From IMG/VR virus record IMGVR_UViG_3300012232_000015, positions 1 through 53,527 of that record: a DNA stretch of 53,527 nt; one strand, written 5' to 3'. The position numbers and the translations under genes were made by a program. The notes below the pieces were generated by a model. That model was not told the origin of the DNA, ran no database searches, and saw only the letters and a list, made by a program, of their open reading frames with translations. Numbering within the stretch: position 1 is the first letter of the stretch; every line of letters starts with the position of its first letter. The DNA is from a virus. Taxonomy: Duplodnaviria > Caudoviricetes. This document shows positions 7,030-51,707 of the stretch, piece by piece.

Positions 7030-9876
7030 TTGCCCCGAGCCAGGACCGACTTGGAGGCGGTGAGCGCCATCGCCGAGCTGGAGAGGCTCGGGGTGAAGTT
7101 CGAGCCGTCTGGCGAGAATGAGATCCGACTAAGGTGTCCGGCACACGAAGATGCGCAGCCCAGCTGCTCTCTGAACGTCGCCAAGAACGTGTGGACCTGC
7201 CACGCGTGCAAGGCGAAGGGAGACGTCGTGACGCTGCTCGCGCTCTTCGCGGGCGTGGAGCGAGCCACGATGCTGGCCGAGCTGTCGAAGCGCTACTCAC
7301 TGGAGGGCGTCCGGCAGATCAATCCCGACCGCATCGAGAAGCTGCACGCAGCGGTCTGGGACGCGGGACCGCTTCTCACTGCGCTGCGCGAGCGCGGCGT
7401 GACGGACGAGATGATCCGGCACGCTCGACTAGGGTACGCCGAGGGGCGCATCTGCATCCCGGTGTACGACCTGCAAGGCCGGTGCGTCAACGTCAGGCGC
7501 TACTTGCCGGGCGCGCCGACCGCCGACAAGATGCGGAACTCCCGCGGCTACGGCGACATCAGGCTGTACCGGCCGGAGGACCTGCGCGACCGCGAGATGG
7601 TTTGGGTGTGCGGCGGCGAGATGAAGTCGCTGGTGGTCGGCTCGCTGCTGAGGCAGCACGGAGTCGGCGCGGTGTGCGCGACGGCGGGGGAGGGGCGGTG
7701 GGACCCGACCTGGAACAGAATGTTCGCCGGCAAGCGCGTCTGGGTCTGCATGGACGTGGACGCCGCCGGTCGAGCCGCGGCTGCGACGGTGGCCAGGCAC
7801 TTGGCTTCTCACGCCGCCGAGGTGAAGCTGGTCGAGCTGCCGCTGGACCGCGAGCGCTACCCCAAGGGCGACGTCAACGACTACGTCGGCTCCGAAGGTG
7901 CGGACGCCGGCGACTTGCTCCGACTGATGGAGTCGGCGAAGCCGTGGCGACCGCCCTCGAGAGAGGCGCCGGACGACCGCGGGGTGCGGCGAGTGACGCT
8001 GGCCTCCGCGACGCGACCGCAGAATGTGGGGTGGCGGCTCGCGTTCGAGACCACGGTGACGGCGATGGACACCACGCCGTACCTCGTGCCGAAGACCGTC
8101 AAGGTGGCGTGCACGCGCGACCAGCCGCTGTGTCACGAGTGCGCCGTGCCGGCGCTGGACCAGGACGAGGGAGGGTTCGTCACGATGCACGTGGCTAGCA
8201 CCTCAGTCGGAATCCTCGAGATGGTGAACGCCGCCAACGAGCACCAGCGCCACGCACTTCGTGAGGCGCTCGGCATTCCAGTCTGCAAGGTCGTCGAGTT
8301 CGACGTGATGGCGCACCACGAGGTGGTCGACGTCAGGCTGGCTCCGCAGCTCGAGGTGGGCACCGGAGTCGGCACGCACAATGTGCTGCAGCCTGCGTTC
8401 GTCGTCGGAGCGCGCGTGGATCTCAACGTGCCGTACGCGGCGGAAGGGCGACTGCACCCGCACCCGAAGACGCAGCAAGCTACCCTGATTGTGGACGCCG
8501 TCGGCGAGACTGCGGACAACCTAGAGTCGTTCGCCCCCACCGACGCCGAGCTGGCGTCGCTCGAGATCTTCAAGCCGGAGGAGTGGACCGTCGAGGGCGT
8601 CAGGGAGAAGCTGCGGCAGCTGTATCGCGACTTCGCCGCCAACGTCACAGGCATCGTGCGACGGCCGGAGATGCACCTCGCGATGGACCTGGCGTGGCAC
8701 TCGCCGCTGATGTTCAGACTAGAAGGCCGGCGGTGCAACGGCTGGCTCAACGTGCTGGTCATCGGCGACTCGTCGCAGGGGAAGAGCGAGACGTTCCTCC
8801 GGCTGCAGGAGCACTACGGGCTTGGCGAGCGAGTCGACTGCAAGAACGCGACGGTGGCCGGCCTGCTCGGCGGTCTGCAGCAGATCGGGACGAGGTGGTT
8901 CGTGTCGTGGGGCCTCATCCCCACGCACGACCGGCGGCTCGTGGGCCTCGAGGAAGTCAAGGGTGCCAGCGTCGAGGTGCTGGCCAAGCTCACCGACATG
9001 CGCAGCTCCGGCATCGCAGAGATCCCGAAGATAGAGAGGCGGCGAGCGCACGCTCGCACGCGCCTCATCTGGATCTCAAATCCACGAAGCAGTCGGCCCA
9101 TCGGCGCGCACTCGTTCGGCGTCGAGGCGATCCTCGAGCTGATCGGCGGCCTCGAGGATGTGAGGCGCTTCGACCTAGCGATCATCGTCGGCTCAGGCCA
9201 GGTGACGGTCGAGGAGATGGGTGAGACCGCTCAGGCGGCGCACCGACACACAGCTGAGCTTTGTCGGCGGTTGGTGCTGTGGGCTTGGACGCGCAAGGAA
9301 GACCAGGTGATCTTCGGCGACGACGCGACGGCGACTCTGAGGCGCGAAGCGTCGGCGCTGTGCGACGACTTCTCTGAGGCTCTGCCCTTGATAGACCGCG
9401 GAACGACGAAGGTGAAGCTGGCTCGCTTGTCCGCGGCACTCGCAGCGCGGACGTTTTCCCGCGACGGCGACTCAATCGCGGTGCTGTCGTGCCACGCAGA
9501 GTACGCCGCCGGCTTCGTGCGCAGAGTGTACTCCGACCCGACATTCGGCTACCTCGACTTCTCCGCGTCGCAGCGGAAGGTTGAGAGCATCGACGACCCT
9601 GACGCGGTGCGGCGCCAGATCCTCACCTTGCGGTGGCCGCGAGCCTTCACACAGATGCTGCTCTATCGCGACGAGCTCACGCACCAAGACTTCATTGACT
9701 CCTGTGAAGTGGACCCGGACACAGCGAGGGCGCTAGTGGCGTTCTTCGTCAGGCAGCACACGATGGTGAGGCGCCGCACAGCGGGATACCAGAAGACACC
9801 TGAGTTCATCCGACTCTTGAAGGAGATGGAGGTCAAGGGCGTGCCGGCTACTGGACAGAGTGTGGGAGAATTCTGA
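7030..9876 (+). CDS. CHC2 zinc finger-TOPRIM primase-like / MCM-family AAA+ helicase fusion
   Basis: RBS AAGGAGG and TTG start. CPAHED..PSCSLN..W.CHAC zinc ribbon. TOPRIM DxD (MDVDAAG) and KGDVNDY. Walker A IGDSSQGKS, Walker B VGLEE, sensor ISNP and arginine finger RRFDL, as in MCM. Confidence 0.85.
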   Translation: MPRARTDLEAVSAIAELERLGVKFEPSGENEIRLRCPAHEDAQPSCSLNVAKNVWTCHACKAKGDVVTLLALFAGVERATMLAELSKRYSLEGVRQINPDRIEKLHAAVWDAGPLLTALRERGVTDEMIRHARLGYAEGRICIPVYDLQGRCVNVRRYLPGAPTADKMRNSRGYGDIRLYRPEDLRDREMVWVCGGEMKSLVVGSLLRQHGVGAVCATAGEGRWDPTWNRMFAGKRVWVCMDVDAAGRAAAATVARHLASHAAEVKLVELPLDRERYPKGDVNDYVGSEGADAGDLLRLMESAKPWRPPSREAPDDRGVRRVTLASATRPQNVGWRLAFETTVTAMDTTPYLVPKTVKVACTRDQPLCHECAVPALDQDEGGFVTMHVASTSVGILEMVNAANEHQRHALREALGIPVCKVVEFDVMAHHEVVDVRLAPQLEVGTGVGTHNVLQPAFVVGARVDLNVPYAAEGRLHPHPKTQQATLIVDAVGETADNLESFAPTDAELASLEIFKPEEWTVEGVREKLRQLYRDFAANVTGIVRRPEMHLAMDLAWHSPLMFRLEGRRCNGWLNVLVIGDSSQGKSETFLRLQEHYGLGERVDCKNATVAGLLGGLQQIGTRWFVSWGLIPTHDRRLVGLEEVKGASVEVLAKLTDMRSSGIAEIPKIERRRAHARTRLIWISNPRSSRPIGAHSFGVEAILELIGGLEDVRRFDLAIIVGSGQVTVEEMGETAQAAHRHTAELCRRLVLWAWTRKEDQVIFGDDATATLRREASALCDDFSEALPLIDRGTTKVKLARLSAALAARTFSRDGDSIAVLSCHAEYAAGFVRRVYSDPTFGYLDFSASQRKVESIDDPDAVRRQILTLRWPRAFTQMLLYRDELTHQDFIDSCEVDPDTARALVAFFVRQHTMVRRRTAGYQKTPEFIRLLKEMEVKGVPATGQSVGEF

Positions 9877-9877
9877 G

Positions 9878-10429
9878 ATGACGACCGACAACGACGACTT
9901 GCTGCAGCTAATGCGCCCCAAATACGGAGATGCGGAGCGGCGACCTGACGAGCGCGCCTCGATGACCGGCATGGTGCGCGCCTTCCACGAGAAGCACGGC
10001 TTCGCCGTCGGTCGAGAGCTGCACACCGGAGCGACGCCGAGCGACCGGAGCGATGTGGTGACCAGCGTCGCCGCCAGGCTGCGCGCCGCGATCCCTAGAG
10101 TCGGCATCGACGACCTCCGCGTGGCCAGGCTGAACCTCATCGTCGAGGAGTGCGCCGAGCTGGCGGAAGCGCTGCTGGCGCGCGACAAAGCTCTAGTACT
10201 CGACGCGCTGGCGGACCTGGCCTACGTTGTGGTCGGCACGGCGGTGGCGTACGGCCTGCCGCTCGAGGCCGCGTTCGACGAGGTGCACCGCAGCAACATG
10301 ACAAAGGAGGCTGACGGGACCCACAAGCCGGCTAAGGGCCCGGACTATCAGCCGCCGCAGCTGACGCGACTGGTGCAGGCGCTGCGGGCGATCGACCTGG
10401 CGACGGGCGACCAGAGGGGGACGCAGTGA
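9878..10429 (+). CDS. MazG-like / all-alpha NTP pyrophosphohydrolase (dUTPase/dCTPase-like)
   Basis: EECAELAEA...DALADLAYV...AFDEVHRSNMTK...KGPDYQPP motifs of the PRA-PH/DR2231-like family. Confidence 0.88.
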   Translation: MTTDNDDLLQLMRPKYGDAERRPDERASMTGMVRAFHEKHGFAVGRELHTGATPSDRSDVVTSVAARLRAAIPRVGIDDLRVARLNLIVEECAELAEALLARDKALVLDALADLAYVVVGTAVAYGLPLEAAFDEVHRSNMTKEADGTHKPAKGPDYQPPQLTRLVQALRAIDLATGDQRGTQ

Positions 10430-11412
10430 GCCACGCTCCCAGGTACGGGTCGCTCGACGAGATGTGGTCGCACGCCGTACTGCAACTGCTGTTCGTCAGT
10501 CCGGCAGTGGAGAGCCGCGCGGGCGGGACGCTCGAGCAGCTCGGCTTCGTCGGGCGCTTGACGAACGTGCGCAGGAACGTGCTGTGGAATGAGGTGCGAC
10601 TCGCGTCTCCGATCTACGCCGCGGCTGAGCTGCTGTGGTACTTGAGCGGCAGCGCTGACGGGGCGATGATCCGCGCCTACGCCCCGCAGTATGAAGGGTT
10701 CCTCGACGACAAGGGCGTCGCCTACGGGGCGTACGGTCGGCGGTGGGCGGAGCACGCGCAGCTTGAGCACGTCATCGGGGTGCTCAGAGAGAAGCGCGCG
10801 TCGAGGCAGGCGGTCGTCGTCTCCTGGGAGGCGCGGGACCTGGCCGCCGCCAGACAGGGAGGGTGCAGGGACGTGCCGTGCACTCTCGCCCTCCAGTTCC
10901 TGCTCCGGGACGGCGAGCTGAACCTCGTCGCCACGATGCGCTCGAACGACGTCTGGCTCGGGATGCCGTACGACGTCTTCTGCTTCACGGTGATCCAGCA
11001 GCTCATCGCGGCCGCGGTCGGCGCGGAGCCTGGCTGGTACCAGCACCAGGCTGGGTCGCTGCACCTCTACGACCAGCACCGCGCTCGAGCGAGCGAGGCG
11101 GTGAATGACATCAACAGGCGCGACGCCAACCTCCCGTCTCTGGAGTTCGCGCTGCCTCCGCCTCCGTGGAGCGACTGGGGTTGGGAGAGCATTCGCTGCG
11201 ACGTGCTGTCCTTCGTGATCGCCGAGGCGACGCAGCGCAACCGGCGAGAGCGGTGCGACGGGACTCTGCGAAACCGGTCGGACTGGCTGGCGCACTGCGT
11301 CGCGCTCACCGGCATGGAGCACGACATTGAGCCGGTCGGGCCGCTCGATCAGCTGCTCATCGAGCGCGCCGAGCTCGTCCTAGAGAGACGAAAGGAGAGA
11401 GTCAAGTCGTGA
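10426..11412 (+). CDS. Thymidylate synthase-fold enzyme, probable dCMP hydroxymethylase/methylase
   Basis: SRQAV, catalytic DVPCT, MRSNDVWLGMPYDVFCF, AGSLHLY. Asp at the position of ThyA Asn177. Confidence 0.85.
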   Translation: MSHAPRYGSLDEMWSHAVLQLLFVSPAVESRAGGTLEQLGFVGRLTNVRRNVLWNEVRLASPIYAAAELLWYLSGSADGAMIRAYAPQYEGFLDDKGVAYGAYGRRWAEHAQLEHVIGVLREKRASRQAVVVSWEARDLAAARQGGCRDVPCTLALQFLLRDGELNLVATMRSNDVWLGMPYDVFCFTVIQQLIAAAVGAEPGWYQHQAGSLHLYDQHRARASEAVNDINRRDANLPSLEFALPPPPWSDWGWESIRCDVLSFVIAEATQRNRRERCDGTLRNRSDWLAHCVALTGMEHDIEPVGPLDQLLIERAELVLERRKERVKS

Positions 11413-11945
11413 TCATCATCGAGGGCGCCGACAATGTCGGGAAGACCACGCTAGCGCAGAAGCTGGCAGAATTGATGGCACGACACTTCGGGAAGCAGGA
11501 GTGGCGCGCCCACTATCGGCACATGACGAGACCGCCGCCAGACTTCGACCACGTCAGCGGGTACTTCGAGGGCGTGGGATCCGTTGTGCAGGACCGCTAT
11601 CACCTCGGCGCGATCGTCTACGGGATGATGCTGGGGCGAGGCGGCTATCCGGACGCGCAGGGGATGCGGCACGTGCAGCGGTACCTCGCGTGGCGCGGCG
11701 CTCTGGTGGTGGTGATGACGAGCAACCGCGACTCGCTCCGGGAGCGGCTCAGGAAGTCGACGAAACAGGAGATGTACGAGCAGGGCGTCATCCTCGCGGC
11801 GAACGACTGCTTCAGGGCGCTGTCGACCCAGCACAATCAAGGTGCGCCGTACTGCGATCGAGTGATCGACGTCACCGACGGGTGGCCAGGTCAGGCGGAG
11901 GAAGAGCTGCTCATGGCAGAGTGGAGGTCGCGGTGGACCAGCTGA
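11409..11945 (+). CDS. dNMP kinase (thymidylate-kinase-like P-loop)
   Basis: IIIEGADNVGKTT Walker A and QDRYH motif. Confidence 0.85.
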   Translation: MIIIEGADNVGKTTLAQKLAELMARHFGKQEWRAHYRHMTRPPPDFDHVSGYFEGVGSVVQDRYHLGAIVYGMMLGRGGYPDAQGMRHVQRYLAWRGALVVVMTSNRDSLRERLRKSTKQEMYEQGVILAANDCFRALSTQHNQGAPYCDRVIDVTDGWPGQAEEELLMAEWRSRWTS

Positions 11946-12379
11946 CCTTGACCGCCATGCGCGACAAGATCGTCTCCGCCACCCTCGCCGCGGAGCGATC
12001 GACACGGTGCAAGCGCAAGGGCGCGGCGGCCCTCGCCACCGACGCGGAGATGCAGGCGGTCATCGTGGCGCACAACGGCCCGACGCACATCTCGTGCACC
12101 GCGGAGCTGGGCAACTGCGGGTGCCAGCACGCTGAGGCGAGGCTGGTGATGCAGCTGATGAGGCTGACCACCCTAGACCAGAGCTGGCGCCCCGACATCC
12201 TGCTCACCACGCTCGCGCCGTGCGTGGCGTGCGCCTACCTGATCGCGGAGTCGGGGCGCTTCCGCACCGTGCTGCACCTCCGAGAATACCACGACGCGCG
12301 AGGAGCGGAGATTCTCCGCCGCGCCGGCCTCGAAGTTTTGAGCCTAGAAGGTAGAGGAGCCGCCAGTGCGCAGCGTTAG
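11933..12379 (+). CDS. dCMP deaminase-like zinc-dependent deaminase
   Basis: GGAGG RBS and GTG 11933. HNG...CQHAE...TTLAPCVACA motifs. Confidence 0.88.
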   Translation: MDQLTLTAMRDKIVSATLAAERSTRCKRKGAAALATDAEMQAVIVAHNGPTHISCTAELGNCGCQHAEARLVMQLMRLTTLDQSWRPDILLTTLAPCVACAYLIAESGRFRTVLHLREYHDARGAEILRRAGLEVLSLEGRGAASAQR

Positions 12380-12578
12380 CTTGAAGCTGAAGATAGCTCA
12401 CCACCCGGGGCGACAGCACGCGTCGGTGAAGTTCTACTCCGGACCGGATGCGATGCACCGCGCGGCGTGCGGCTCCATCATGATGACGATCGCGGAGGCA
12501 GACGCGCTCGAGCTGCTGCTCCGCCTGGGCATCGAGGCGAAGCCGGACGGCGTCGAGCTCGAGGTGGAGAAAGACTGA
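12366..12578 (+). CDS. Hypothetical protein
   Basis: AGGAG RBS, TGATG-coupled to the next gene. Confidence 0.6.
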   Translation: MRSVSLKLKIAHHPGRQHASVKFYSGPDAMHRAACGSIMMTIAEADALELLLRLGIEAKPDGVELEVEKD

Positions 12579-12772
12579 TGGCGAAGTACCGCGTCAAGCT
12601 AGCGTTCACATTCGACGCGCAAGACGGCGAAGAGATCGAGGTGCTGGCGAACGAAGGCGAGTCGCTACAAGAGGCGCTCGATCGCCTCTACGAAGACGGC
12701 GCGTACTTGGGCGAACCACTAGAGCCGAGCATCAGCGACTTCCGCATCATAGAGCAAAAGGAAGTTCAGTAG
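12578..12772 (+). CDS. Hypothetical protein
   Basis: MAKYRVKLAFTFDAQDGEE..., coupled start. Confidence 0.65.
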   Translation: MAKYRVKLAFTFDAQDGEEIEVLANEGESLQEALDRLYEDGAYLGEPLEPSISDFRIIEQKEVQ

Positions 12773-12773
12773 C

Positions 12774-14774
12774 GTGGCCGTCCGAGTGGAGAGTGGGCTG
12801 ATCGCGGAGAGCGCTGGCGAGCTGCCGTCGCTCGCCGGGGTCCGCACTCTGTACCTCGACCTCGAGACTACGTCGGGCGACGACAAGGAAGACGGCGTGA
12901 GCTTCTGGCGCGGCGACACGCAAGTGTGCGGCGTCGCCGTCACGGCCGACGACTGGGAGGACGCCTGGTACGCGCCGGTGAGGCACCACGGGCCGGGCGC
13001 CGAGCGGTGGAACCTCGATCCGGAGCCGGTGATGCGCTGGGCCGGCGAAGGCGTCAAGCGATGCGTCGAGTGGGTCAACGCCAACGTGAAGTTCGACGCG
13101 CACGGCATGGCGAAGGAGGGCCACATCTTCGACTGCAGGCTCGTCGACCTGGTGAACCTGGCTAAGACGATCAACTCCGATCGCTACGAATTCGGCCTCA
13201 AGTCGCTGTGTCGCGAGTGGGTGGGGGTCCCGATGCGCGCTGAGGACCGCATCAAGAGCCACCTCAAAGGGCTGAAGTCGAAGGACTACGGCCGCGTGCC
13301 GGCTGACCTGCTCGGCGACTATGCGTGCGAAGACGTCCGCGGCGCCAGGGCGCTGCACAAGTGGCTGGTCGCGCACCGCCCGACAGAGATGGCCGATCTG
13401 TGGGAGACGGAGACGCTGCTCACGCCGGTGCTGTGGGACGTCGAGCAGGAGGGCGCGCGCATCGACGAGACGCGCACGAAGATCGAGCAGGTGCTGACGA
13501 TGCGCCGCATCCTCGCGCTGGGCGATGAGATCCGCGAGCTGACCGGCGTCGAGCTGGTCAAGTCGCCGCAGGCGATGCACGATCTGTTCTGTGTGCAGCT
13601 CGGTCTGCCGGTCGTCGGGTGGACGGATGAGGGCAACCCCTCCTTCGACAAGGAGGCGATGCGGCTCTACGAGGGTCTCCCTCAAGTGGTCACCGACCCG
13701 ATCGCGTCTCGAGTGGTGCAGGCTGTGCGCGACTGGAGCGTCGAGAACACTTACCTGTCGCTCTTTCTCCGGCCGTTCCTCGCGAAGCGCGACGCGGGCG
13801 GCAAGCTACACAGCACGTACAACCAGACGATCAAGACCGGCCGCACGTCGAGCAGCGACCCCAACTCGCAGCAGTTCAACTCGAGAGCGAAGGCGCTGGT
13901 GATCCCCGACCCCGGCAGGTCGCTGCTGAGCGTCGACGCGTCGCAGGTCGAGTTCCGCTTGCTGGTCCACCTGTGCAAGGACCGCGCCGCGATCGCCGCC
14001 TACCAAGCTGACCCGCGCACCGACTTTCACCAGTGGGTGGCGGAGCTGTGCGGCATCTCGCGGCGCGCCGCCAAGAACGTCAACTTCGCCATGGCGTACG
14101 GAGCCGGCAAGGCCAAGGTGACTGCGATGCTCGCCGGCGACCGGCGCATCATGGAGGACATCGGCGCGACGGTCGAAGCTGAGATCCAGGCCGGCGTCAC
14201 CTTGCCCAGCGCTCGACCGTGGCGCTACCGCACACTGTGCGAGGAGCGAGCGGCGCAGATCTACGCGACCTACCACGAGAGGCTCAGCAGCATCCGGCGG
14301 ACGAGCTTCACGGCGAGCGACGCGTGCCGCCTCAACGGCTACGTGCGGAATCCGTACAAGCGGAGGCGGCACCTCCCGCAGCACCTGGCGCACCGCGCGT
14401 TCAACAGCGCAGTGCAAGGCGGAGCGATGGACCTCATCAAGGAGCGCATCGTGGCTCTCGCGCCGCGGTACAATAGCTGGTCCAGGTCGATCGACTTGAG
14501 GATCCACGCCAGCGTGCACGACGAGCTCGTGCCGTCGCTGCCCAGTGAGGCGCTCAAGTGCGCAGAAGGTCAAGAGCCTGAAGTCGTTGCGGAGATCGAG
14601 CGAATCCTGAGCGCGCCGAGCGTTCCGATGCGTGTGCCGTTCGTGTGGGACAGCGGCTGGAGCGACGAGAGCTGGGCAGCCGCGGCGCATCACGCGGACG
14701 AGCGCAAGAAAGCCCGCCAAATTTTTGGCGGGCTCGGTGTGCCAGGCGCGCAGCGAGCGAAGGTGGCGCAGTGA
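12774..14774 (+). CDS. polA: DNA polymerase, family A, with 3'-5' exonuclease
   Basis: ExoI LDLETT, ExoII NVKFD, ExoIII YACED. TGRTSSSDPN, motif A DASQVEFR, motif B KNVNFAMAYG (Phe at the 762-equivalent), motif C VHDE. Confidence 0.95.
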   Translation: MAVRVESGLIAESAGELPSLAGVRTLYLDLETTSGDDKEDGVSFWRGDTQVCGVAVTADDWEDAWYAPVRHHGPGAERWNLDPEPVMRWAGEGVKRCVEWVNANVKFDAHGMAKEGHIFDCRLVDLVNLAKTINSDRYEFGLKSLCREWVGVPMRAEDRIKSHLKGLKSKDYGRVPADLLGDYACEDVRGARALHKWLVAHRPTEMADLWETETLLTPVLWDVEQEGARIDETRTKIEQVLTMRRILALGDEIRELTGVELVKSPQAMHDLFCVQLGLPVVGWTDEGNPSFDKEAMRLYEGLPQVVTDPIASRVVQAVRDWSVENTYLSLFLRPFLAKRDAGGKLHSTYNQTIKTGRTSSSDPNSQQFNSRAKALVIPDPGRSLLSVDASQVEFRLLVHLCKDRAAIAAYQADPRTDFHQWVAELCGISRRAAKNVNFAMAYGAGKAKVTAMLAGDRRIMEDIGATVEAEIQAGVTLPSARPWRYRTLCEERAAQIYATYHERLSSIRRTSFTASDACRLNGYVRNPYKRRRHLPQHLAHRAFNSAVQGGAMDLIKERIVALAPRYNSWSRSIDLRIHASVHDELVPSLPSEALKCAEGQEPEVVAEIERILSAPSVPMRVPFVWDSGWSDESWAAAAHHADERKKARQIFGGLGVPGAQRAKVAQ

Positions 14775-15100
14775 GAGTGAGCGACGACTTCGACGACGCG
14801 ATCAAGCTGGCGTGCGGCTGCGAGACCGGCAGCTGGCCCACATTCGCAGAAGTCCTGTGTTGTCGCGCCTGGCCAGGCACGGAGGCGGGCAGGTTCGTCT
14901 TGACTTCGCACGCGCGGCAGCTGACGTACTGGCGAGATGAGCGGGGCGACCACGTGTTCAGCACAGCCGCCGAGTGTCCCAAGCTCATGATCCGCGCGTC
15001 GCAGACGGTGCGCATGTCGCAGTCGCAGCTGTGGGTCGTCCGGCACAGTCTGTGGGGGTGGGCCGCGCGTGCGAAGCTGGAGGCGCCGCATGTCAACTGA
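14771..15100 (+). CDS. Hypothetical protein
   Basis: GTGA-coupled to the polymerase. Cys/Trp-rich, lies between polymerase and MTase-like gene. Confidence 0.55.
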   Translation: MRVSDDFDDAIKLACGCETGSWPTFAEVLCCRAWPGTEAGRFVLTSHARQLTYWRDERGDHVFSTAAECPKLMIRASQTVRMSQSQLWVVRHSLWGWAARAKLEAPHVN

Positions 15101-16256
15101 CGGCAAGCTGAGCGGCATCCGCGCCGCCGGCGTGCACACTTACTTCGGCGGCTTTCACCGGTCGCTCGAGGCGGACACCGAGTGGCTGGGCAGCGCCGAG
15201 TCGTGGAGCCCCGCGATCCGAGCGCGGCGACTGGCCGGGCTGCCGACGCTCAATCACCCTGGTCTCACACCGCACGCCGAGCTGGTGGTCAGCAATCCGC
15301 CGTGCAGCCGGTTCTCGGCTATGAGCACCGGCACGTATAGTGAAGATCACAAGACGAAGCTCGGCTCGTTCTGCGAGCTAGAGGACGCCGTGCTGTTCGC
15401 CGAGCGCGTCCGGTGCAGAGCTTTCTGGTGGGAGACCGGCCCGCTGCTGTGGACTAAAGGGAGGGAGCTCGTGCGCGCCGTGCACCGCCACTGGGCAGAG
15501 CGGTGGGGAGGGTGCACGACGGTAGCAGTGAAGCTGGACGTCCGCTGGACGGGAGTGCCGCAGCGGCGGCCGCGCTGCCACGTCGTGCACGTCGCGGGAG
15601 ACCGGGAGGTGCCCTGCGTAGCCCCCTCCGCCTGGCCCCTAGGACAGCCTGCCTTGCTCTGGGCCCGGGACAGGGTAGCCAGTCAGGGTTGGGGGTCGGA
15701 CCCGGCCGGGTGGGATCAGGTAAAGCCCGTGGGGGCGTACCGGAAGATGACCGCCCTGGCCTACTACGAGATGTGCATGCTGATCTCGGAGTTCATCGCC
15801 ACCAGGCCGCAGCTTGTGGGGCTGCAGGACCACTTCACCAACGCGGTGCTGAGCGGCCGGCCGATGATCTGCGATGAGGAGGACCGGTTCGTCTCGTGGC
15901 AGGAGTACGCGGCGCTGATGTGCCTGCCGCTGGAGATGGTGCGACCGGTCGCCGAAGAGCAGGGCGGCTGGCAGGCGCTGATGATGATGAGCAAGGGCGT
16001 CTGCCCCGCCGCGTCGCGGTGGGTGGCCGATTGCGTAGTGGCGCCGCTGATGGGCCTCGCGCCTTACGAAGACGACCTCGAGCTCGTCGCGCGCGGAGCG
16101 CCGAAGCGCGTCGAGGTCGGCGGGCCTGGAGGCGACGTCGGCTGGCTAGAGGCCGTCGCGCCGGACTGGCCGCGAAGGCGGAGTGCGTACGGCGAGGATC
16201 ACAGGAAGGCGATCCCGCTGAAGGACCAAAGTTGCCCGAAGAGGACGTGGGAGTGA
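15090..16256 (+). CDS. Atypical C5-cytosine DNA methyltransferase homologue
   Basis: Motif IV SNPPCSRFS, motif VIII PQRRPR, degenerate motif I HTYFGGF, motif VI WWETG, motif IX RFVSWQEYAALM, motif X MSKGVCP. Confidence 0.8.
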   Translation: MSTDGKLSGIRAAGVHTYFGGFHRSLEADTEWLGSAESWSPAIRARRLAGLPTLNHPGLTPHAELVVSNPPCSRFSAMSTGTYSEDHKTKLGSFCELEDAVLFAERVRCRAFWWETGPLLWTKGRELVRAVHRHWAERWGGCTTVAVKLDVRWTGVPQRRPRCHVVHVAGDREVPCVAPSAWPLGQPALLWARDRVASQGWGSDPAGWDQVKPVGAYRKMTALAYYEMCMLISEFIATRPQLVGLQDHFTNAVLSGRPMICDEEDRFVSWQEYAALMCLPLEMVRPVAEEQGGWQALMMMSKGVCPAASRWVADCVVAPLMGLAPYEDDLELVARGAPKRVEVGGPGGDVGWLEAVAPDWPRRRSAYGEDHRKAIPLKDQSCPKRTWE

Positions 16257-16711
16257 TGACGAGCGAAGACCCCGACCCCGAGATTGAGGACGCACTGAAA
16301 TTGGCCAGCTCCATCGGGCTGGCAGTTACCGGCCGCGATGGCTACGTGTACCTGGCGCTCCCCGGCACGCTGAAGATGACGCCAGACGACGCGCGCCTCA
16401 TCGCGAAGCTGCTGCGCAAGCACGCCCTCCTCGCGGAGCCGCAAGCGACGCCCGGAGAAGTCGCGCACCTCAGACAAGCTGAGCGCGCTGCGCAGGTTAT
16501 GGCGTCGGAGGTCGAGTCGCTCACTCCGAGAGGGTGGCGCTTCGTCATCGTGCTGGCATCAGAGGGCGAAGGCGGGTTCGCCACCTGGGTGGGGAACTGC
16601 GGCCGCGAGACGACCGCCGAGCTGCTGCGCGAGCTGCTCGCGAAGTTCGACGCGCGCACGGAAGACGACCTCGAGTACCAGAAGCGACAAGCTAACAGGA
16701 GACCGAAGTGA
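16256..16711 (+). CDS. Hypothetical protein
   Basis: TGATG-coupled. MTSEDPDPEIEDALKLA... Confidence 0.65.
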   Translation: MTSEDPDPEIEDALKLASSIGLAVTGRDGYVYLALPGTLKMTPDDARLIAKLLRKHALLAEPQATPGEVAHLRQAERAAQVMASEVESLTPRGWRFVIVLASEGEGGFATWVGNCGRETTAELLRELLAKFDARTEDDLEYQKRQANRRPK

Positions 16712-16920
16712 GTCACCGAACCGACACCATCGACCGACAGCCGGAGCCGAAGACGTACCTCGGCGACGGAGCCTATGCGCGCATCGAGCTGGCCTACGGC
16801 TCGAAGAATCTGGTGATCACCGCCGAGAACGGCCTGCACGTCACCGACTGCGTCGTGCTGGGCCCCGGCGAGCTGAAGGAGCTGCTGAGGTTCTGTCGAG
16901 AGAACGGAGCGATCCAGTGA
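16708..16920 (+). CDS. Hypothetical phage protein
   Basis: AGGAG RBS, GTGA-coupled, YLGDGAYA motif. Confidence 0.7.
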   Translation: MSHRTDTIDRQPEPKTYLGDGAYARIELAYGSKNLVITAENGLHVTDCVVLGPGELKELLRFCRENGAIQ

Positions 16921-17147
16921 ATCCCAAATATGCGCCCAAGAGCGACCTCGACACGTTCGGCTACCTCGTCGAGGAGTGCGGTGAGGTGCTGCAGGCCGTC
17001 GGCAAGGCGCTGCGGTGGGGCCTCGAGAGTGCGAACCCTGAGCTGCCTGAGGAGCAGCGGGAGACGAACCGCGACTGGATCCTCCGCGAGCTGCAGGACG
17101 TGGAGCGCGCCGTCTTCCTGATGCGCGCCAGACTGGAGGCCAGGTGA
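16917..17147 (+). CDS. Small MazG-like nucleotide pyrophosphohydrolase domain protein
   Basis: LVEECGEVLQAVGK...RELQDV (EExxE...ExxD pattern). Confidence 0.7.
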   Translation: MNPKYAPKSDLDTFGYLVEECGEVLQAVGKALRWGLESANPELPEEQRETNRDWILRELQDVERAVFLMRARLEAR

Positions 17148-18148
17148 CTGCCGAGATCCCGCAAGGTCGGTGGCGGCCCGGAGTGTGGGCCACGCCCGAA
17201 GAATTAGCGGAGCTGCCGACGCGCGGGCCGGCGTGGGAGGGGCTCGCGAAGACGGCCGGCAAGCCGATCGGGGAGCCGGACTTGGCGGACCAGGACTCTG
17301 ACGGCGACTCGATCGCGATGGCGAAGGGTTTAGTATTTGCGCGCACCGGCGGCGAGGAGCTGCGGCGAGAGGTGTCCGACGCGTGCGCCAAGATCATCGG
17401 GACCGAGAAGAAGGGCGACGCGCTGGCGCTGGGGCGCAACCTGATCGGCTACGTCATCGCGGCGGACCTAGTGGGCTTGCCGTCGATGGACCCGGACGGG
17501 CTGCGTCGCGTGTTTCGCAGGTGGCTTCGCAAGGTCGTCGTCGAGCGCCTGACTGACGAGAGGACGCTGGTCAGCACGCACGAGGAGCGGCCGAACAACT
17601 GGGGCACGCACGCCGGGGCCAGCAGGGTCGCCGTTGCCGCGTACCTCAAGGACCCTCAAGCGGTGCGGCGGTGTGCGCAGGTCTTCAAAGGGTGGCTGGG
17701 CGACCGACAGGCGCACGCCGGGTTCGAGTTCGGCGACGACTTGAGCTGGCAGGCTGACCCGAAGAAGCCGGTCGGCGTCAACCCCAAAGGCGCCACTCTC
17801 AAAGGGCACTCGATCGACGGCGCGCTGCCCGACGACCAGCGGCGCGCGGGGCCCTTCACTTGGCCCCCGCCGAAGGAGAACTACGTGTGGGAGGCTCTGC
17901 AAGGGGCGCTCGCGCAGGCGGAGATTCTCTTCAGGTGCGGGTACGACGCCTGGGAGTGGGAGGACAGGGCGCTGTTCCGAGCGGCGACTTGGCTGCACGC
18001 TCAGTGCGAGTACCCTGCGACCGGCGACGACGAGTGGCAGCCGCACCTGCTGAACTTCAGATACCGCGCCAAGTTCCCGACGAAGTCGCCGGCGCGACAC
18101 GGGAAGAGCGTCGGCTTCACCGACTTGACGCACGCAAGGAACTGGTAG
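17144..18148 (+). CDS. Alginate-lyase-like (alpha/alpha toroid) polysaccharide lyase
   Basis: HEERPNNWGTHAGAS resembles the NN(H/W) active-site segment of alginate-lyase-family proteins. Helical, Trp/Tyr-rich, no signal peptide. Confidence 0.6.
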   Translation: MTAEIPQGRWRPGVWATPEELAELPTRGPAWEGLAKTAGKPIGEPDLADQDSDGDSIAMAKGLVFARTGGEELRREVSDACAKIIGTEKKGDALALGRNLIGYVIAADLVGLPSMDPDGLRRVFRRWLRKVVVERLTDERTLVSTHEERPNNWGTHAGASRVAVAAYLKDPQAVRRCAQVFKGWLGDRQAHAGFEFGDDLSWQADPKKPVGVNPKGATLKGHSIDGALPDDQRRAGPFTWPPPKENYVWEALQGALAQAEILFRCGYDAWEWEDRALFRAATWLHAQCEYPATGDDEWQPHLLNFRYRAKFPTKSPARHGKSVGFTDLTHARNW

Positions 18149-18156
18149 AGGCACAA

Positions 18157-18393
18157 GTGAACGTAGACAAGCCGCACGACATCGTCGACGAAGCCGCGCT
18201 GCGTCGGATGAATCTTCGCGCACGCGTCAGGTACCGCCCTGTCCCGGTCGCTGAGGCGGCGCGGCTCCACTCCATGACGGAGGGCGAGCGGGCTGCGTGG
18301 CTGGCGGCGCACCCGCTGCCAGAGGCCGATCTGGCGAGGATCCACAAGGCCATCGAGAGGCGCAGGAGAAGGGAAGAGAGGAGGCAGAAGTGA
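18157..18393 (+). CDS. Hypothetical basic protein
   Basis: GAGG RBS and GTG. Arg-rich C-terminus, coupled to the next gene. Confidence 0.6.
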   Translation: MNVDKPHDIVDEAALRRMNLRARVRYRPVPVAEAARLHSMTEGERAAWLAAHPLPEADLARIHKAIERRRRREERRQK

Positions 18394-18680
18394 GCGACTT
18401 GTACGAGAGGTGGGAGCGACTGGCCGAGCGCGACTTCGGCGACGACGTCCACGACGGGAGGCCTGTGCTGCGCGTCGGGTCGGGCAGCGGGTTCGACGTC
18501 ATCGCGTGCACCGGGTGCGGAGGTCCGGCGAGCGACGCCAGTCCGTGCTCCGCGTGCGCCGACGACGAGCCCGGGTGCAGGGCTTGCGACGAGCCGCTCT
18601 ACGGCGAGCTGGAGAAGTCTAGCGGGCTGTGTGAGCCGTGCGAGGCGGCAGAGGCGCGGGCGCAAGAGGGCGGTGAGTAG
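18390..18680 (+). CDS. Zinc-finger protein
   Basis: GGAGG RBS. Four CxxC pairs (CTGC, CSAC, CRAC, CEPC). Confidence 0.7.
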   Translation: MSDLYERWERLAERDFGDDVHDGRPVLRVGSGSGFDVIACTGCGGPASDASPCSACADDEPGCRACDEPLYGELEKSSGLCEPCEAAEARAQEGGE

Positions 18681-18811
18681 TGGGGCAGCGGTGCGATAAG
18701 ACCCACGAGCACGCGATTCCCGGGTGCCCGTACTGCGCAGTGGACGAGCTCATGGAGAGGTCGAAAGCGCAGCTGGCGAGCATAGATGAGGTAGACGGTG
18801 CGCGAGACTAA
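18680..18811 (+). CDS. Small Cys/His protein (43 aa, not in ORF track)
   Basis: MGQRCDKTHEHAIPGCPYCAVDELMERSK... fills the gap between coupled genes. Confidence 0.5.
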   Translation: MGQRCDKTHEHAIPGCPYCAVDELMERSKAQLASIDEVDGARD

Positions 18812-19592
18812 GCCGAGGGTGTTCCTGGTCGCTGAGACGAAGCTGTATAGGGCGCCGACCAGCGGGACCGATGTGCCGGATATGCGCGACTACTTGGGGC
18901 ACGTAGGCGCGCCCGATTGGGAGACGGATTCTCGCACTGACGCCGAGCTGCTGATCGAGGCGGCGGGCCGGCTGTGCTACAAGAGCTGGAAGCCCGGGCT
19001 CAACCCGAACGTGACTAGGGTGCGGGAGGGGAACAGGGAGTACGTCGGCAACCTGATCGCGCAGCGGCACGGCAGCGTGCTCGAGCACGCGCAGGTCACG
19101 TTTGTCTTCGCCGACGTGAGCCGCGTCTTCACGCACGAGCTGGTCCGGCACAGGGCGGGGTGCGCTTACAGCCAGGAGTCACTGCGCTATGTGCGTCTTG
19201 ATGACCTGGGGTTCAGGATTCCTGGGTGCTTGGAGCCGCTGCGCGAGCACGTCAACGACCTGATGCTGCGGATGGAGAACTTCCAGAAGCATGCAGCCGT
19301 GACGCTGGAGGTGTCCGAGCTGCCGTTCTCGGTGAAGAAGGTCATCACCAGCGCGATGCGCCGGCTAGCGCCGCTTGGGTTGAGCACGCATATCATGTGG
19401 AGTGTCAACTTGAGGGCCCTGCGGCACGTCATCGCGCAGAGGACGGCCGAGGGCGCAGAGGAGGAGATGCGCACGGTGTTCGACGAGGTGGCCAGGATCG
19501 CTAAGCGGCGGTGGCCGGCGGTGTTCCAAGACTTCGAGAGGCAAGAGCCTGAAGGCTCGTGGCGCTCGACGGCGGGCGGGGAGAAGGTGTGA
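18798..19592 (+). CDS. thyX: FAD-dependent thymidylate synthase ThyX
   Basis: AGRLCY, HGSVLEH, SRVFTHELVRHR...SQESLRY signature, NLRALRH. Confidence 0.97.
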   Translation: MRETKPRVFLVAETKLYRAPTSGTDVPDMRDYLGHVGAPDWETDSRTDAELLIEAAGRLCYKSWKPGLNPNVTRVREGNREYVGNLIAQRHGSVLEHAQVTFVFADVSRVFTHELVRHRAGCAYSQESLRYVRLDDLGFRIPGCLEPLREHVNDLMLRMENFQKHAAVTLEVSELPFSVKKVITSAMRRLAPLGLSTHIMWSVNLRALRHVIAQRTAEGAEEEMRTVFDEVARIAKRRWPAVFQDFERQEPEGSWRSTAGGEKV

Positions 19593-23235: not shown

Positions 23236-25478
23236 TGCTCACAGCCGCCGCAGCTCCGCCCGAAATCCGTCTGCCGCGCATTTGGGCGCCGGTGTTGAGC
23301 CCTCAGGGGGCGGTCGTGATCCACGCGGCGCTCGACTGTCGCGCCCCCGACGCGTGCCTCGCCGCGGCGCTGGCTCGCGAGGGCGACGTGGCGCTGCGAG
23401 CACCGCCCGCGGCAATGTGCCGCATCGAGCTCTTGCTAGGCGAGTGGGCTCCGGACGCGCGAGTGCGCCGCATCGGCGGAGCGCGGGTGACGCTCGTCGG
23501 CGGCACGCGGCTGTGGCTCATCGGCGACGACGCGGCACTCAGCGACGCGCCGGCTCCGACGCTGGCCGCGCTCGTGGCGTGCGACTGCCACCTGATGAGT
23601 GAGGACCCGAGGGCCGTCATCGGCAAGCGCCTGGTCGGGCCGTCGATTCTCACTGCGCAGTTCCCGCCGCGAGGGCACTGGCTGCGCTCTCTCCTCGGTC
23701 CTGGGACGACTGCGACGGAAGTCAGGGCTGACGCAGTGACATCGGCGTTCCCCGATCAGGCGCCCTTCCTAATAGGAGAGGGCCAGCCGGGGTACGACGA
23801 GCTGATGCAGCTCCGCGACGCGCCGAGCCAGAGCTCGAGCGGCGGGGCGCTCTTCGCGACGTGCCGGCGCCGCCTCAGGGTGCGCACCGACAAGCCGCCT
23901 GCGTCCTTGAGTGAGGAGCAGCGGCACGAGGCTGACGAGCAGCTGGGTCGCGAGTGGGGCGCCACGGCGGGCACCGCGCCGGTGGTATCGCTCGACCCGA
24001 TGCCGCTCCAGCGCCGCTACCTCGCGATGAAGGAGGTGGGGCGCCGCCGAGGGTTCAAAAAGTTCCTCACCATCAAGTACCGGCGGGGCGGCATTACCAC
24101 CATCGAGCAGGCCATCTCGTACCTCGGGTGCGATGTGCCCAATTCCTATGTGGCCGCTATCGGCGACACGGACTCCAAGTCTCGCCGCATCTTCCACATG
24201 GTGTCGATGTTCCACGAGCGCGACCCGCAGGCGGTGCCGATGGCTGGACGCCCGTCGGAGACGCGCTTGAGCCTCGTGAACGGCTCGTACTTCTTCGTCG
24301 GCACCGCTGGCGGCAAGGGCGTCAACCGCGGCGACTCGCTCCAGCGCGTGCACGGGTTTGAGGTGCCGTACTGGTGCGAGGGCCCGAAGCAGCTTGAGGA
24401 CGTCGAGGCTCTCATGGCCGGCATCGGCGAAGCGTGCAGCCGCGGCGAGGTGTCGTTGGAGGGAACGCCCAACGGGCGCGAGTGGGCCTACCACACGTAC
24501 TCCGACGCCAAGAAGCGCCTCAACGACTTCTGGCCCATCTTCCTGCGGTGGTTCGATGACCCGCTCAACGTCGCGCAGCCCGGCACGTACGACGAGGCTG
24601 AGACGCTCGAGACCTTGACCGACGACGAGAAGGCACTAGTCGCGCGTCACCCGCGCCAGTTCCGCCCTCGCTCCGTCGCCGCCATGGTGGCGTTTCGCAG
24701 ACAGAAGCAGTTGTCGCTGCGCAGACTCTTTTTGCAAGAGTACCCTGAGGACGACGAGGCGTGCTTCTTGACGAGCGGCCACTGCTTCTTCGACGCTCAG
24801 CTTCTGCTGCAGATCCTCGAGCTCACCCCCGAGTACCCTCGCAGCCACGTGCCGGGCGGCTACGAGGTCGAGTGGGAGGCGCCGCAAGCCAACGTCGAGT
24901 ATGTGTTAGGCTGCGACACCAGCGAAGGAATCCCGGGTTGCGACCCAAACGGCGTGGGCGTGGCTCGCAAGGATACGGGGGCGCAAGTCGCGGCGGTGCA
25001 CGGTCTGTTCAAGCCCGACGTCCTGGCCGGTCACGTCGCCCGCCTCTCAAAGAGGTACAACGATGCCCTGTCAGGTGTGGAGCGCGAGAACCACGGGCAC
25101 GCGGTGCTGCAGAAGTGCGCTGAGCTGGGCATGCGCCCCCACTCCTCTGGTGGGTCACTGTACCACTTCAAGGCGAGGGGCGGCTCGCCGAGCGAGGACC
25201 GCGCCGAGCGGCTCGGCCGCGCCGGCTGGAGTACGAATGCGGTGACGCGCCCGCTGATGCTCGACGAGCTGTCAGACCTCATCGAGTCGGGGCTCGAGGT
25301 GAGAGACCGCGACCTGCTCGCCGAGTGCCTCACCTTCCGCCTGCAGAGTAACGGAAAGTTCGCCGCCGATCCTGGAGCCCACGACGACGCGGTGATGAAG
25401 TGGGCGGTGTGCTATCAGATGCGACAGCACCGCCGGCGCAAGCCCGGCATCTCGATCCTAGAAGGGACGATCGCGTAA
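23235..25478 (+). CDS. terL: Terminase large subunit with N-terminal extension
   Basis: Walker A-like KYRRGGITT, Walker B VHGFEVPYW, EGTPNG, FLQEYP, nuclease YVLGCDTSEG, VERENHG, GAHDDAVM. Confidence 0.9.
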   Translation: MLTAAAAPPEIRLPRIWAPVLSPQGAVVIHAALDCRAPDACLAAALAREGDVALRAPPAAMCRIELLLGEWAPDARVRRIGGARVTLVGGTRLWLIGDDAALSDAPAPTLAALVACDCHLMSEDPRAVIGKRLVGPSILTAQFPPRGHWLRSLLGPGTTATEVRADAVTSAFPDQAPFLIGEGQPGYDELMQLRDAPSQSSSGGALFATCRRRLRVRTDKPPASLSEEQRHEADEQLGREWGATAGTAPVVSLDPMPLQRRYLAMKEVGRRRGFKKFLTIKYRRGGITTIEQAISYLGCDVPNSYVAAIGDTDSKSRRIFHMVSMFHERDPQAVPMAGRPSETRLSLVNGSYFFVGTAGGKGVNRGDSLQRVHGFEVPYWCEGPKQLEDVEALMAGIGEACSRGEVSLEGTPNGREWAYHTYSDAKKRLNDFWPIFLRWFDDPLNVAQPGTYDEAETLETLTDDEKALVARHPRQFRPRSVAAMVAFRRQKQLSLRRLFLQEYPEDDEACFLTSGHCFFDAQLLLQILELTPEYPRSHVPGGYEVEWEAPQANVEYVLGCDTSEGIPGCDPNGVGVARKDTGAQVAAVHGLFKPDVLAGHVARLSKRYNDALSGVERENHGHAVLQKCAELGMRPHSSGGSLYHFKARGGSPSEDRAERLGRAGWSTNAVTRPLMLDELSDLIESGLEVRDRDLLAECLTFRLQSNGKFAADPGAHDDAVMKWAVCYQMRQHRRRKPGISILEGTIA

Positions 25479-51706: not shown

Positions 51707-51707
51707 C

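Follow-up and report, generated by a model that had tools for sequence, protein, structure and literature searches.

What does a phage do to its cytosines when one tightly packed gene run joins the enzyme classes of T4-type cytosine replacement to an aberrant protein with the fold of DNA cytosine-C5 methyltransferases (C5-MTases)? The window that raises this question (53,527 nt) is a whole IMG/VR phage record of 89% completeness, with an ORF cut by its 3′ end.

Layout of the module

The compact run described in the initial annotation, namely MazG, TS, kinase, deaminase, PolA, C5-MTase, second MazG and ThyX, proved real: the eight genes all run along the + strand between 9860 and 19592 at the positions first assigned to them, their GC3 is high, and stop and start codons overlap. 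It forms the module for nucleotide metabolism and replication of a siphovirus-like phage, comprising:

7030..9876, + strand: primase (CHC2 Zn-ribbon, Toprim; Pfam PF01807, PF13362) with a fused helicase-like C-terminus, the context gene heading the module; 51% identity to its homologue in Caudoviricetes sp. ctIqW946 (MW202657.1)
9860..10429 (alternative start 9878), + strand: MazG/PRA-PH-type NTP pyrophosphohydrolase (PF01503, 3.1e-14; phrog_671, 2.5e-24)
10426..11412, + strand: TS-fold pyrimidine hydroxymethylase, predicted dCMP type (PF00303, 3.7e-26)
11409..11945, + strand: P-loop nucleotide kinase-like protein (phrog_761 'thymidylate kinase', 1.3e-9)
11942..12379, + strand: dCMP deaminase (PF00383, 2.5e-8; phrog_174, 9.1e-15)
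12774..14774, + strand: family A DNA polymerase (PolA) with 3'-5' exonuclease (PF00476, 2e-38; PF01612, 1.7e-6)
15090..16256 (alternative start 15069), + strand: C5-MTase-fold protein of the Lys-type family (predicted structure, alignments)
16917..17147, + strand: second, small MazG-like NTP pyrophosphohydrolase (phrog_4856, 1.9e-12)
17144..18148, + strand: alginate-lyase-family protein (PF05426, 6.3e-10)
18798..19592, + strand: ThyX, flavin-dependent thymidylate synthase (PF02511, 1.2e-40; TIGR02170, 121 bits against a cut-off of 87.9)

A dCMP-hydroxymethylase signature and the predicted precursor pathway

The TS-fold enzyme scores far under the cut-offs of all ThyA equivalog models, and its best PDB match is the CMP hydroxymethylase MilA (1.9e-28). 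Its alignment keeps Cys146 and D169 and shows L143D and N177D, in agreement with its earlier labelling as an Asp-type TS; by the residue criteria laid out in passages of PMC13326640 and PMC8670742, the first of which presents the L143 rule as a correlation, this signature points to a dCMP-type hydroxymethylase. Cys146, D169 and Asp177 are common to the window enzyme and all eight other TS homologues neighboring MTase-like genes, with position 143 being D, E, Q, T or S, and never Leu.

The signature bears out the T4-type cytosine replacement module proposed from the initial annotation, and we propose that dC is most likely replaced by 5-hydroxymethyl-dC before replication, in the T4 manner. The first MazG protein, a putative dCTPase or dUTPase, would remove dCTP and/or dUTP; passages of PMC8670742 describe the co-occurrence of PF01503 with TS in modified-cytosine contigs. 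The TS-fold enzyme would convert dCMP to 5hm-dCMP, as suggested by the Cys146/L143D/D169/N177D signature together with the glucosyltransferase-like partners found in relatives. This product would be phosphorylated by the P-loop protein, a tentative candidate for a 5hm-dCMP kinase, whose Pfam and NCBIfam matches are sub-cut-off and limited to the P-loop, which matches no PDB sequence, and whose gene is kept adjacent to the TS gene in two further contigs (L001, L022); the phage PolA would then build it into DNA. The dCMP deaminase (HAE and PCxxC motifs in its translation) and ThyX, both identified by their domain models (PF00383; PF02511/TIGR02170), would supply dTMP without consuming reduced folate, ThyX standing in for ThyA and DHFR.

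Neither ThyX nor the second MazG, both initially taken as module components, is a conserved part of the module, and the same holds for the alginate-lyase-like gene, whose membership in the pathway is doubtful; all three have no matches in the 20 other contigs.

A C5-MTase-fold protein with an altered methyl-donor pocket

Models in Pfam, PHROG and NCBIfam all leave the C5-MTase-fold protein unmatched, as do PDB sequences; a homologue 38% identical to it passes PF00145, which the window protein itself fails. Its AlphaFold model (pLDDT 86.7) aligns with M.HhaI over 285 of 327 residues (Z 25.1, rmsd 3.3 Å, 14% identity) and with CmoX (PDB 8YF3), a DNA cytosine C5-carboxymethyltransferase, at Z 21.2. 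It belongs to a rare family, with 86 matches at E<=1e-3, 54 at E<=1e-10 and 45 at E<=1e-30 among 1,835,955,588 representatives, typified by the motifs NPPCSRxS, WWETGP, PQxRxRxH and SKG/SV. In the non-gap rows of 69 aligned members, NPPC and Arg74 are invariant (66/66), as is Glu115 (68/68), while Lys302 is found in 64/67 (the remainder being two Gln and one Arg) and His16 in 59/62. The machinery for attack on C6 and for recognition of a cytosine ring is retained (Cys72, Glu115, Arg160/162). The methyl-donor pocket is altered: His replaces the adenine-stacking Phe, Tyr the first Gly of motif I (now HxYxGG) and Lys the Asn of motif X, and the motif III Asp is missing, with no conserved acidic residue between W39 and D64 in the family alignment. 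The Lys, already named in the initial annotation, occupies the position of M.HhaI Asn304 and CmoX Arg350. Since Glu37 is conserved and its counterparts in homologues bind the SAM ribose, a SAM-like cofactor may still bind. The TRD-like region has a mean conservation of 0.27 against 0.5-0.7 in the core, the lowest of any part except the C-terminal tail, and in this resembles DNA MTases differing in specificity. With its altered motifs I, III and X, this protein is, as first noted, the sole DNA-base-directed candidate in the window.

The complete C5-MTase architecture with its catalytic residues, the methylase annotations of relatives and the passing of PF00145 by some of them would also suit a divergent but ordinary SAM-dependent C5 methyltransferase guarding particular sites, beside a separate hydroxymethylation pathway with partial 5hmC substitution. 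Canonical C5-MTases are common in phages, whereas the Lys-type family is very rare, its altered motifs I (HxYxGG), III (no Asp) and X (Lys for Asn) are conserved as such across the 69 members, and this reading leaves the linkage to Asp-type TS genes unexplained. Moreover, the reverse change in CmoX, R350N, left SAM use unrestored (passages of PMC12783734), and we regard an ordinary methyltransferase as quite unlikely.

Somewhat less unlikely is a Lys-type analogue of CmoX that would use carboxy-SAM from the host CmoA to place 5-carboxymethyl groups on unmodified C, giving two C5 marks by two routes. Lys302 aligns with CmoX Arg350, which, according to passages of PMC12783734, holds the carboxymethyl group, and the engineered M.MpeI N374K described there likewise uses Cx-SAM; the two proteins also have the xPPCS motif in common, and an invariant additional Arg74 adjoins the Cys. 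Against this, CmoA (TIGR00740) was not found in the window, in three relatives (G001, 96% complete; G002, 100%; MW202657.1, circular) or in G003; PMC12783734 counts 4257 CmoA genes accompanying 5615 CmoX candidates. In the alignment with SpCmoX (F25/H16, G27/Y18, E47/E37, D69/gap, S95PPC/N69PPC, R350/K302) neither F25 nor D69, which contact the adenine, is retained, the family profile matches M.HhaI (7e-4) and not 8YF3 at E<=1, the structure is no nearer to CmoX than to M.HhaI, and the linkage to dCMP-type TS genes is again unaccounted for.

This linkage emerges from the 13 contigs in which at least one flank of the MTase-like gene is visible for 2.5 kb or more: nine of them have a dCMP-type TS gene no further than about 6 kb from it, in three gene orders; the contigs being related, these are not independent events, though the TS neighbors span three very different phage genome layouts. 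PolA stands beside MTase-like or TS genes in nine contigs. Of the anticipated co-occurrence of TS, kinase, MTase and ThyX, the TS (9/13) and kinase (L001, L022) parts were recovered and ThyX was not (0/20 contigs). No TS gene was found in the remaining four contigs; in three (L005, L011, L012) the MTase-like gene lies within 1.1 kb of the contig end. The fourth, L029, is chromosomal, from candidate division WWE3 (neighbors MurG, FtsA, FtsZ and IleRS), and its whole MAG is without a PF00303 match; 5hmC is therefore a non-obligate partner of the family.

The neighbors of the MTase-like gene in L029 are genes for a deoxynucleoside kinase, DUF1599 ('nucleotide modification associated domain 1') and a thymidine kinase, among which it lies, and in L004, L006 and L014 it is followed by a P-loop kinase gene whose product has a fused C-terminal domain, tentatively UDG-like by its motifs. 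Such neighbors could indicate action on mononucleotides or unmodified host DNA (cofactor-free covalent attack, deamination or marking for degradation) and not on phage DNA. We hold this to be improbable given the entire TRD-bearing DNA-MTase architecture with its variable recognition region; moreover, we know of no C5-MTase-fold enzyme with free nucleotides as substrate.

A six-frame HMM search of the window (89% of the genome) left T4-Gluco-transf, Glycos_transf_1, Tet_JBP, Carbam_trans_C and CmoA all unmatched at E<=1, and none of the roughly 45 ORFs scanned against Pfam or PHROG was named a glycosyltransferase, upholding the reported lack of glycosyltransferase, TET/JBP and carbamoyltransferase. 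A T4 BGT-like gene is present in six relatives, adjoining the MTase-like gene in L004, L006, L014, L019 and L021 and lying elsewhere in MW202657.1; the model of its product (pLDDT 91.1) has T4 BGT (1QKJ) as top Foldseek match (E 1.3e-5, TM 0.61). As it occurs in G001, G002 and MW202657.1, all three of the relatives that are complete or nearly so, a glycosyltransferase in the missing 11% is quite possible. Plain T4-style glycosylation by such an enzyme, with the MTase-like protein as a minor or regulatory accessory, thus has a real though lesser chance of being correct. In MW202657.1 the BGT-like gene occupies the early region directly upstream of the shared module, the side on which the window is cut off; however, that phage and the window share nothing but the replication module, no BGT-like gene is seen in the available 12.6 kb of L016, 11.9 kb of L018 or 3.9 kb of L020, and this reading gives no reason why the MTase-like active site is so strictly conserved. 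Glycosylation can be compatible with our preferred explanation.

On balance, we favor with modest confidence a T4-like replacement of dC by 5hm-dC before replication followed by action of the C5-MTase-fold protein on the replicated DNA. In our preferred reading it would target DNA that already contains 5hmC (5hmC itself or residual C) with a co-substrate other than plain SAM, which is the least certain step; more broadly, its substrate may be 5hmC-DNA or its donor carboxy-SAM. In vitro, C5-MTases can use thiols to derivatize 5hmC and can add formaldehyde to C (passages of PMC7176277).

If every C were 5hmC, a C5 transferase would find no free C5, a point that goes against this reading.

Comparison with known systems

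The T4 5hm-dC pathway comprises the gp56 dCTPase, gp42 dCMP hydroxymethylase, gp1 dNMP kinase, cd dCMP deaminase and beta-glucosyltransferase. The window follows the same logic with the same classes (NTP pyrophosphatase, TS-fold enzyme, kinase, deaminase and the phage's own polymerase), its TS-fold enzyme has Asp177 and an acidic residue at 143, and its relatives carry a BGT-fold enzyme. Unlike T4, it has ThyX for ThyA and DHFR, a family A polymerase, an additional C5-MTase-fold gene and no glycosyltransferase, and comes from a small phage genome of 67% GC in a freshwater sediment metagenome.

A syntenic relative is MW202657.1 from Manatee Spring, whose replication module (38-51% identity) has SNF2, primase-helicase, MazG, TS ('pyrimidine hmase'), kinase, deaminase, PolA and MTase-like ('modification methylase HaeIII') genes in common with the window. 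It differs in having a BGT-like gene, a ligase and an FkbM methyltransferase, in lacking ThyX, the second MazG and the alginate-lyase-like gene, and in its unrelated structural genes. The Pfam core of TS(Asp177), PF01503 and PF00383 is also that of the MetaGPA modified-cytosine metavirome contigs, which, in passages of PMC8670742, combine TS, PRA-PH and dCMP deaminase, some with a 5hmC carbamoyltransferase that the window lacks; the main text of that study has no occurrence of 'DNA methylase' or 'PF00145', and these passages name no MTase-like partner.

Among canonical bacterial C5-MTases (PF00145), M.HhaI is the best structural match of the Lys-type protein, which keeps the Cys of the PC motif, the Glu of ENV and QxRxR, and differs in failing PF00145 and in its altered motifs I, III and X. 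Compared to CmoX of Synechococcus phage S-B43, it has Lys for Arg and NPPC for SPPC, does not retain the adenine-binding F25 and D69, and has dCMP-type TS and, in relatives, BGT-like genes instead of a CmoA or CmoY-type partner; both have the C5-MTase fold, the xPPCS catalytic loop and, in place of M.HhaI Asn304, a basic residue. The pre-replicative 5hm-dC pathway is of a known kind, whereas the Lys-type enzyme, rare and with a remodelled pocket, is an undescribed variant that could represent a new step in DNA modification.

The gene run and its predicted pre-replicative pathway

The window is one entire linear IMG/VR virus record of 53,527 bp (67% GC; CheckV completeness 89%), in which every convincing gene lies on the + strand, terminase, portal, major head, tape-measure and tail genes occupy 22-51 kb, and the 3' end truncates an open frame. 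Among public runs, only one freshwater sediment metagenome, which is probably the source sample, contains the region, and none of 50,697 phage records matched it by megablast. The tightly packed gene run described in the initial annotation is real and spans 9860-19592, with overlapping stops and starts:

Genes of the run, with family matches (E-values, unless given in bits)
9860-10429, + strand: MazG/PRA-PH protein (PF01503, 3.1e-14)
10426-11412, + strand: TS-fold enzyme (PF00303, 3.7e-26)
11409-11945, + strand: P-loop kinase (phrog_761 only, 1.3e-9; Pfam and NCBIfam detect just the P-loop, below cut-off)
11942-12379, + strand: dCMP deaminase (PF00383, 2.5e-8)
12774-14774, + strand: PolA, between the dCMP deaminase and MTase-like genes
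15090-16256, + strand: MTase-like protein (see below)
16917-17147, + strand: second, small MazG (phrog_4856, 1.9e-12)
17144-18148, + strand: alginate-lyase-family protein, between the small MazG and ThyX (PF05426, 6.3e-10)
18798-19592, + strand: ThyX (above the TIGR02170 equivalog threshold of 87.9 bits, at 121.4 bits)

The ThyX translation contains RHR and SQESLRY, which we take to be ThyX motifs, and the kinase drew chance matches only from PDB sequences (E >= 0.34). In the gap that separates the alginate-lyase-like gene from ThyX, positions 18297-18680 hold a small ORF that is rich in Cys, has several CxxC pairs and matches no family. Two unnamed proteins between terminase and portal (25400-27917) also lack family matches, one of 484 residues and Gly-rich, the other of 338 residues and highly charged, with a Pro/Thr/Lys-rich tail. 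After the tail genes, a 494-residue protein (51537-53021) matches phrog_19870 (unknown function; 4.5e-41) and has GKWH and TSDHG stretches, presumably signatures of a sulfatase; a role as a tail-associated depolymerase is possible.

Numbered as in E. coli ThyA, the TS-fold enzyme displays Cys146 (VPCT, aligned on the ThyA PCH motif), Asp143 (RDVPC), Asp169 (RSND) and Asp177 (PYDVF, aligned on the ThyA PFNIA motif), with Thr at 147; Asp occupies 177 in 10/10 aligned TS homologues. Its closest solved relative is MilA, a CMP 5-hydroxymethylase (1.9e-28). The relevant passages of one earlier study give N177D as a mark of dCMP use and D169N as a mark of 5-hydroxy-dCMP synthases, and correlate an acidic residue at 143 with a hydroxymethyl rather than a methyl product (PMC13326640). 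Passages of another single out Asp177 together with a changed residue 147 as marking modified-cytosine contigs, on which TS, PF01503 and dCMP deaminase co-occur (PMC8670742). The published criteria for a dCMP hydroxymethylase, viz., the Cys146 fold, Asp177 and a non-Leu residue at 143 (acidic or polar, with regard to water access), are all seen here, and from these residues and the MilA match we predict that the TS-fold enzyme is a dCMP hydroxymethylase. Its predicted product is 5hm-dCMP, with deoxyribose in place of the MilA-type ribose, on the basis of a context comprising the kinase, PolA and the relatives' BGT-like gene (discussed below). Three other assignments were rejected: a 5-hydroxy-dCMP synthase of the RB69 gp48 type, as Asp169 is kept and is not Asn; a true ThyA, as the protein scores 3-17x under every ThyA equivalog cut-off; and a dUMP hydroxymethylase, as it has Asp177. 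The pathway reading, which is of a known kind, is well supported.

A C5-MTase-fold family with Lys at motif X

The MTase-like protein gave zero named matches in Pfam, PHROGs and NCBIfam, none to PF00145 at E<=10 and nothing among PDB sequences at E<=10 (phmmer), while its C-terminal 81 residues alone recovered only a chance Lac repressor match from the latter. Its homologue in MW202657.1 (Caudoviricetes sp. ctIqW946) passes PF00145 (28.5 bits against a cut-off of 22). A model built from 33 relatives (pLDDT 86.7, pTM 0.88) superposes on M.HhaI (1FJX; Z 25.1, rmsd 3.3 A, 285 residues; Foldseek E 1.6e-13) and on CmoX, the DNA cytosine C5-carboxymethyltransferase of Synechococcus phage S-B43 (8YF3; Z 21.2), and thereby predicts a two-domain C5-MTase fold. 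Searched exhaustively with phmmer, 1.84 billion representatives contained 86 matches at E<=1e-3, of which 54 had E<=1e-10 and 45 had E<=1e-30; a word-indexed search gave 35. The weaker phmmer matches are other NPPC-type MTase-like groups.

Among 69 aligned members of this family, characterized by Lys at motif X (hereinafter Lys-type), NPPC with Arg74 is found in 66/66 non-gap rows, Glu115 in 68/68, Arg160 in 67 rows, Arg162 in 68 rows, Lys302 in 64/67 (the others being two Gln and one Arg) and His16 in 59/62. The stretches NPPC72, WWE115TGP and PQ158RR160PR162 are thus invariant or nearly so, and supply the catalytic PC Cys, the Glu of ENV and the QxRxR of C5-MTases. The SAM motifs, in contrast, are changed: HxYxGG stands for the FxGxG of motif I, in a register on which the HMMER family-profile alignment to M.HhaI and the SpCmoX alignment agree; SK(G/S)V stands for the GN of motif X; and the family has no conserved acidic residue (the motif III Asp) between Trp39 and Asp64. 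The kept Cys, Glu and Arg along with the altered SAM motifs indicate, at the level of sequence, a cytosine-activating half that is intact and a donor pocket that has been rebuilt. Apart from the C-terminal tail, conservation within the family is lowest in the TRD-like region (mean column conservation 0.27, versus 0.5-0.7 in the core), which suggests that members may act on DNA substrates of differing sequence context. The Lys-type family forms a distinct variant that is both conserved and rare; a search of the available literature found no paper describing it or its pairing.

On alignment with SpCmoX (sequence from MN018232.1), the pairs (family/SpCmoX) are Lys302/Arg350, Asn69-Pro-Pro-Cys72/S95PPC98, Glu37/Glu47 (which binds ribose in CmoX), His16/Phe25 (which stacks on adenine in CmoX) and Tyr18/Gly27, while CmoX Asp69 meets a gap. 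The CmoX study identifies Arg350, equivalent to M.HhaI Asn304, as the carboxymethyl-binding residue, and places CmoA, the source of carboxy-SAM (Cx-SAM), on the same contig as most candidates (PMC12783734). The Lys-type family differs from the SPPC plus Arg350 signature used in that search, having NPPC and Lys302, with Arg in only 1/67. In the records searched it further differs in its lack of a phage-encoded CmoA partner: CmoA (TIGR00740) is missing from the window and four related records, namely G001 (96% complete), G002 (100%, with terminal repeats), G003 and the circular MW202657.1. Cx-SAM could instead be supplied by a host CmoA.

A second MTase-like group (proteins P0071-P0101) shows NPPCAxWS, FAGGF and SRGVCP with Arg at the motif X position, and one of its members, P0097, matches CmoX 8YF3 at 1.7e-5; these may be CmoX-like enzymes beyond the published SPPC criterion.

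Gene neighborhoods and the glycosyltransferase question

The Lys-type family is found on 21 distinct contigs: the window, MW202657.1, three IMG/VR records, 15 further metagenome contigs and one genome contig (L013 duplicates L004). Thirteen offer usable context, i.e., >=2.5 kb visible on at least one side. A TS homologue lies within ~6 kb of the MTase-like gene in 9/13 (the window, L001 [MW202657.1], L004, L006, L014, L016, L018, L020 and L022), and these nine neighboring homologues all retain Cys146, Asp169 and Asp177, with Leu at 143 in none. The nine contigs fall into three gene orders, with ~30% identity between groups. TS was not seen in the other 4/13 (L005, L011, L012 and L029). For L005, L011 and L012, no more than 1.1 kb separates the MTase-like gene from the edge of the contig, and TS is also missing from the full 28.5 kb record from which L005 comes. 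The true exception is L029, a chromosome of candidate division WWE3 with MurG, FtsA, FtsZ, IleRS and FtsW neighbors, whose MAG yielded no TS-fold gene when searched; there (9020-13778) the MTase-like gene sits between genes for an HTH-deoxynucleoside kinase, DUF1599 ('nucleotide modification associated domain 1') and thymidine kinase, with cell-division genes around. The joint occurrence of TS, kinase, MTase and ThyX raised in the initial annotation holds for TS with the MTase-like gene and, inside the window's own group, for the kinase, but fails for ThyX; none of the other contigs has a counterpart of ThyX, of the second MazG or of the alginate-lyase-like gene.

A conserved ~300-residue protein adjoins the MTase-like gene in L004 (11022-11924), L006, L014, L016 and L018; it has an N-terminal P-loop kinase (phrog_761, 1.3e-8) and a C-terminal half with what we take to be uracil-DNA-glycosylase-like motifs. 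A homologue of the window kinase (49% identical) occurs at L001 14180-14716 (MW202657.1 33457-33993), unannotated in the GenBank record, which gives a 415-residue hypothetical CDS ending at the start of this homologue.

The window was said to have no recognizable glycosyltransferase, Tet/JBP or carbamoyltransferase, and within this 89%-complete record a six-frame HMM search agrees: T4 glucosyltransferase (PF09198), GT1 (PF00534), Tet/JBP, the carbamoyltransferase C-domain and CmoA gave nothing at E<=1, as did an HMM of the relatives' BGT-like family. The latter family (~340 residues) is encoded directly upstream of the MTase-like gene in L004, L006, L014, L019 and L021, and in MW202657.1 18 kb upstream of it, just upstream of the replication module. 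By ORF-level tblastn with a bit-score cut (whole-genome tblastx being dominated by high-GC noise), that module is all that MW202657.1 has in common with the window. The BGT-like sequence profile (A2) found zero glycosyltransferase matches among PDB sequences and Pfam. An Atlas feature search led to PF09198 clusters, and a model from nine sequences (pLDDT 91.1) has T4 beta-glucosyltransferase 1QKJ as its top match (E 1.3e-5, TM 0.61), the link to the T4 enzyme coming from this fold search and the Atlas lead only. The presence of such a putative glucosyltransferase in relatives supports 5hmC as the likely TS product in this lineage, and since the gene is present in 3/3 complete or near-complete relatives, the ~6 kb missing from the window could plausibly encode a glycosyltransferase.

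Candidate reactions and comparison with known systems

For the MTase-like enzyme we rank action on 5hmC-DNA with a non-SAM co-substrate first, a Cx-SAM transferase second and plain methylation last. Derivatization of 5hmC through a C6 adduct is, to our knowledge, to date only an in-vitro side reaction of C5-MTases. Passages of one study provide in-vitro precedent for C5-MTase chemistry on 5hmC (PMC7176277). In a more novel reading, which we advance as an improbable proposal, the Lys-type family would be a natural SAM-free enzyme processing 5hmC in DNA via Cys72, Lys302, Arg74 and His16. Cys72 would add to C6 of 5hmC; Lys302, at the position of the SAM methyl, would assist departure of the hydroxyl; and an anionic nucleophile, positioned by Arg74 and His16, would trap the exocyclic methylene, yielding a new C5-substituted base.

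The main value of the system lies in this MTase-fold family, whose rare, conserved active site joins the machinery for covalent attack on cytosine C6 to a donor pocket of non-canonical design, and which is found beside dCMP hydroxymethylase and BGT-like genes. It might prove to be a natural transferase of carboxymethyl or other non-methyl groups to C5, the second such class; a natural enzyme that derivatizes 5hmC via a C6 adduct, the first of its kind; or a dead end. In either of the first two cases, the set of bases with which phages counter restriction would grow by one, and the labeling of 5hmC or C would gain a tool. The pre-replicative part is a further case of a known strategy, with the TS-fold enzyme, MazG, kinase, deaminase and polymerase genes reproducing the T4 scheme. 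Unlike that scheme, the window has ThyX in place of ThyA and DHFR, a folate-sparing twist that makes biochemical sense, as folate is oxidized neither by ThyX nor by a hydroxymethylase.
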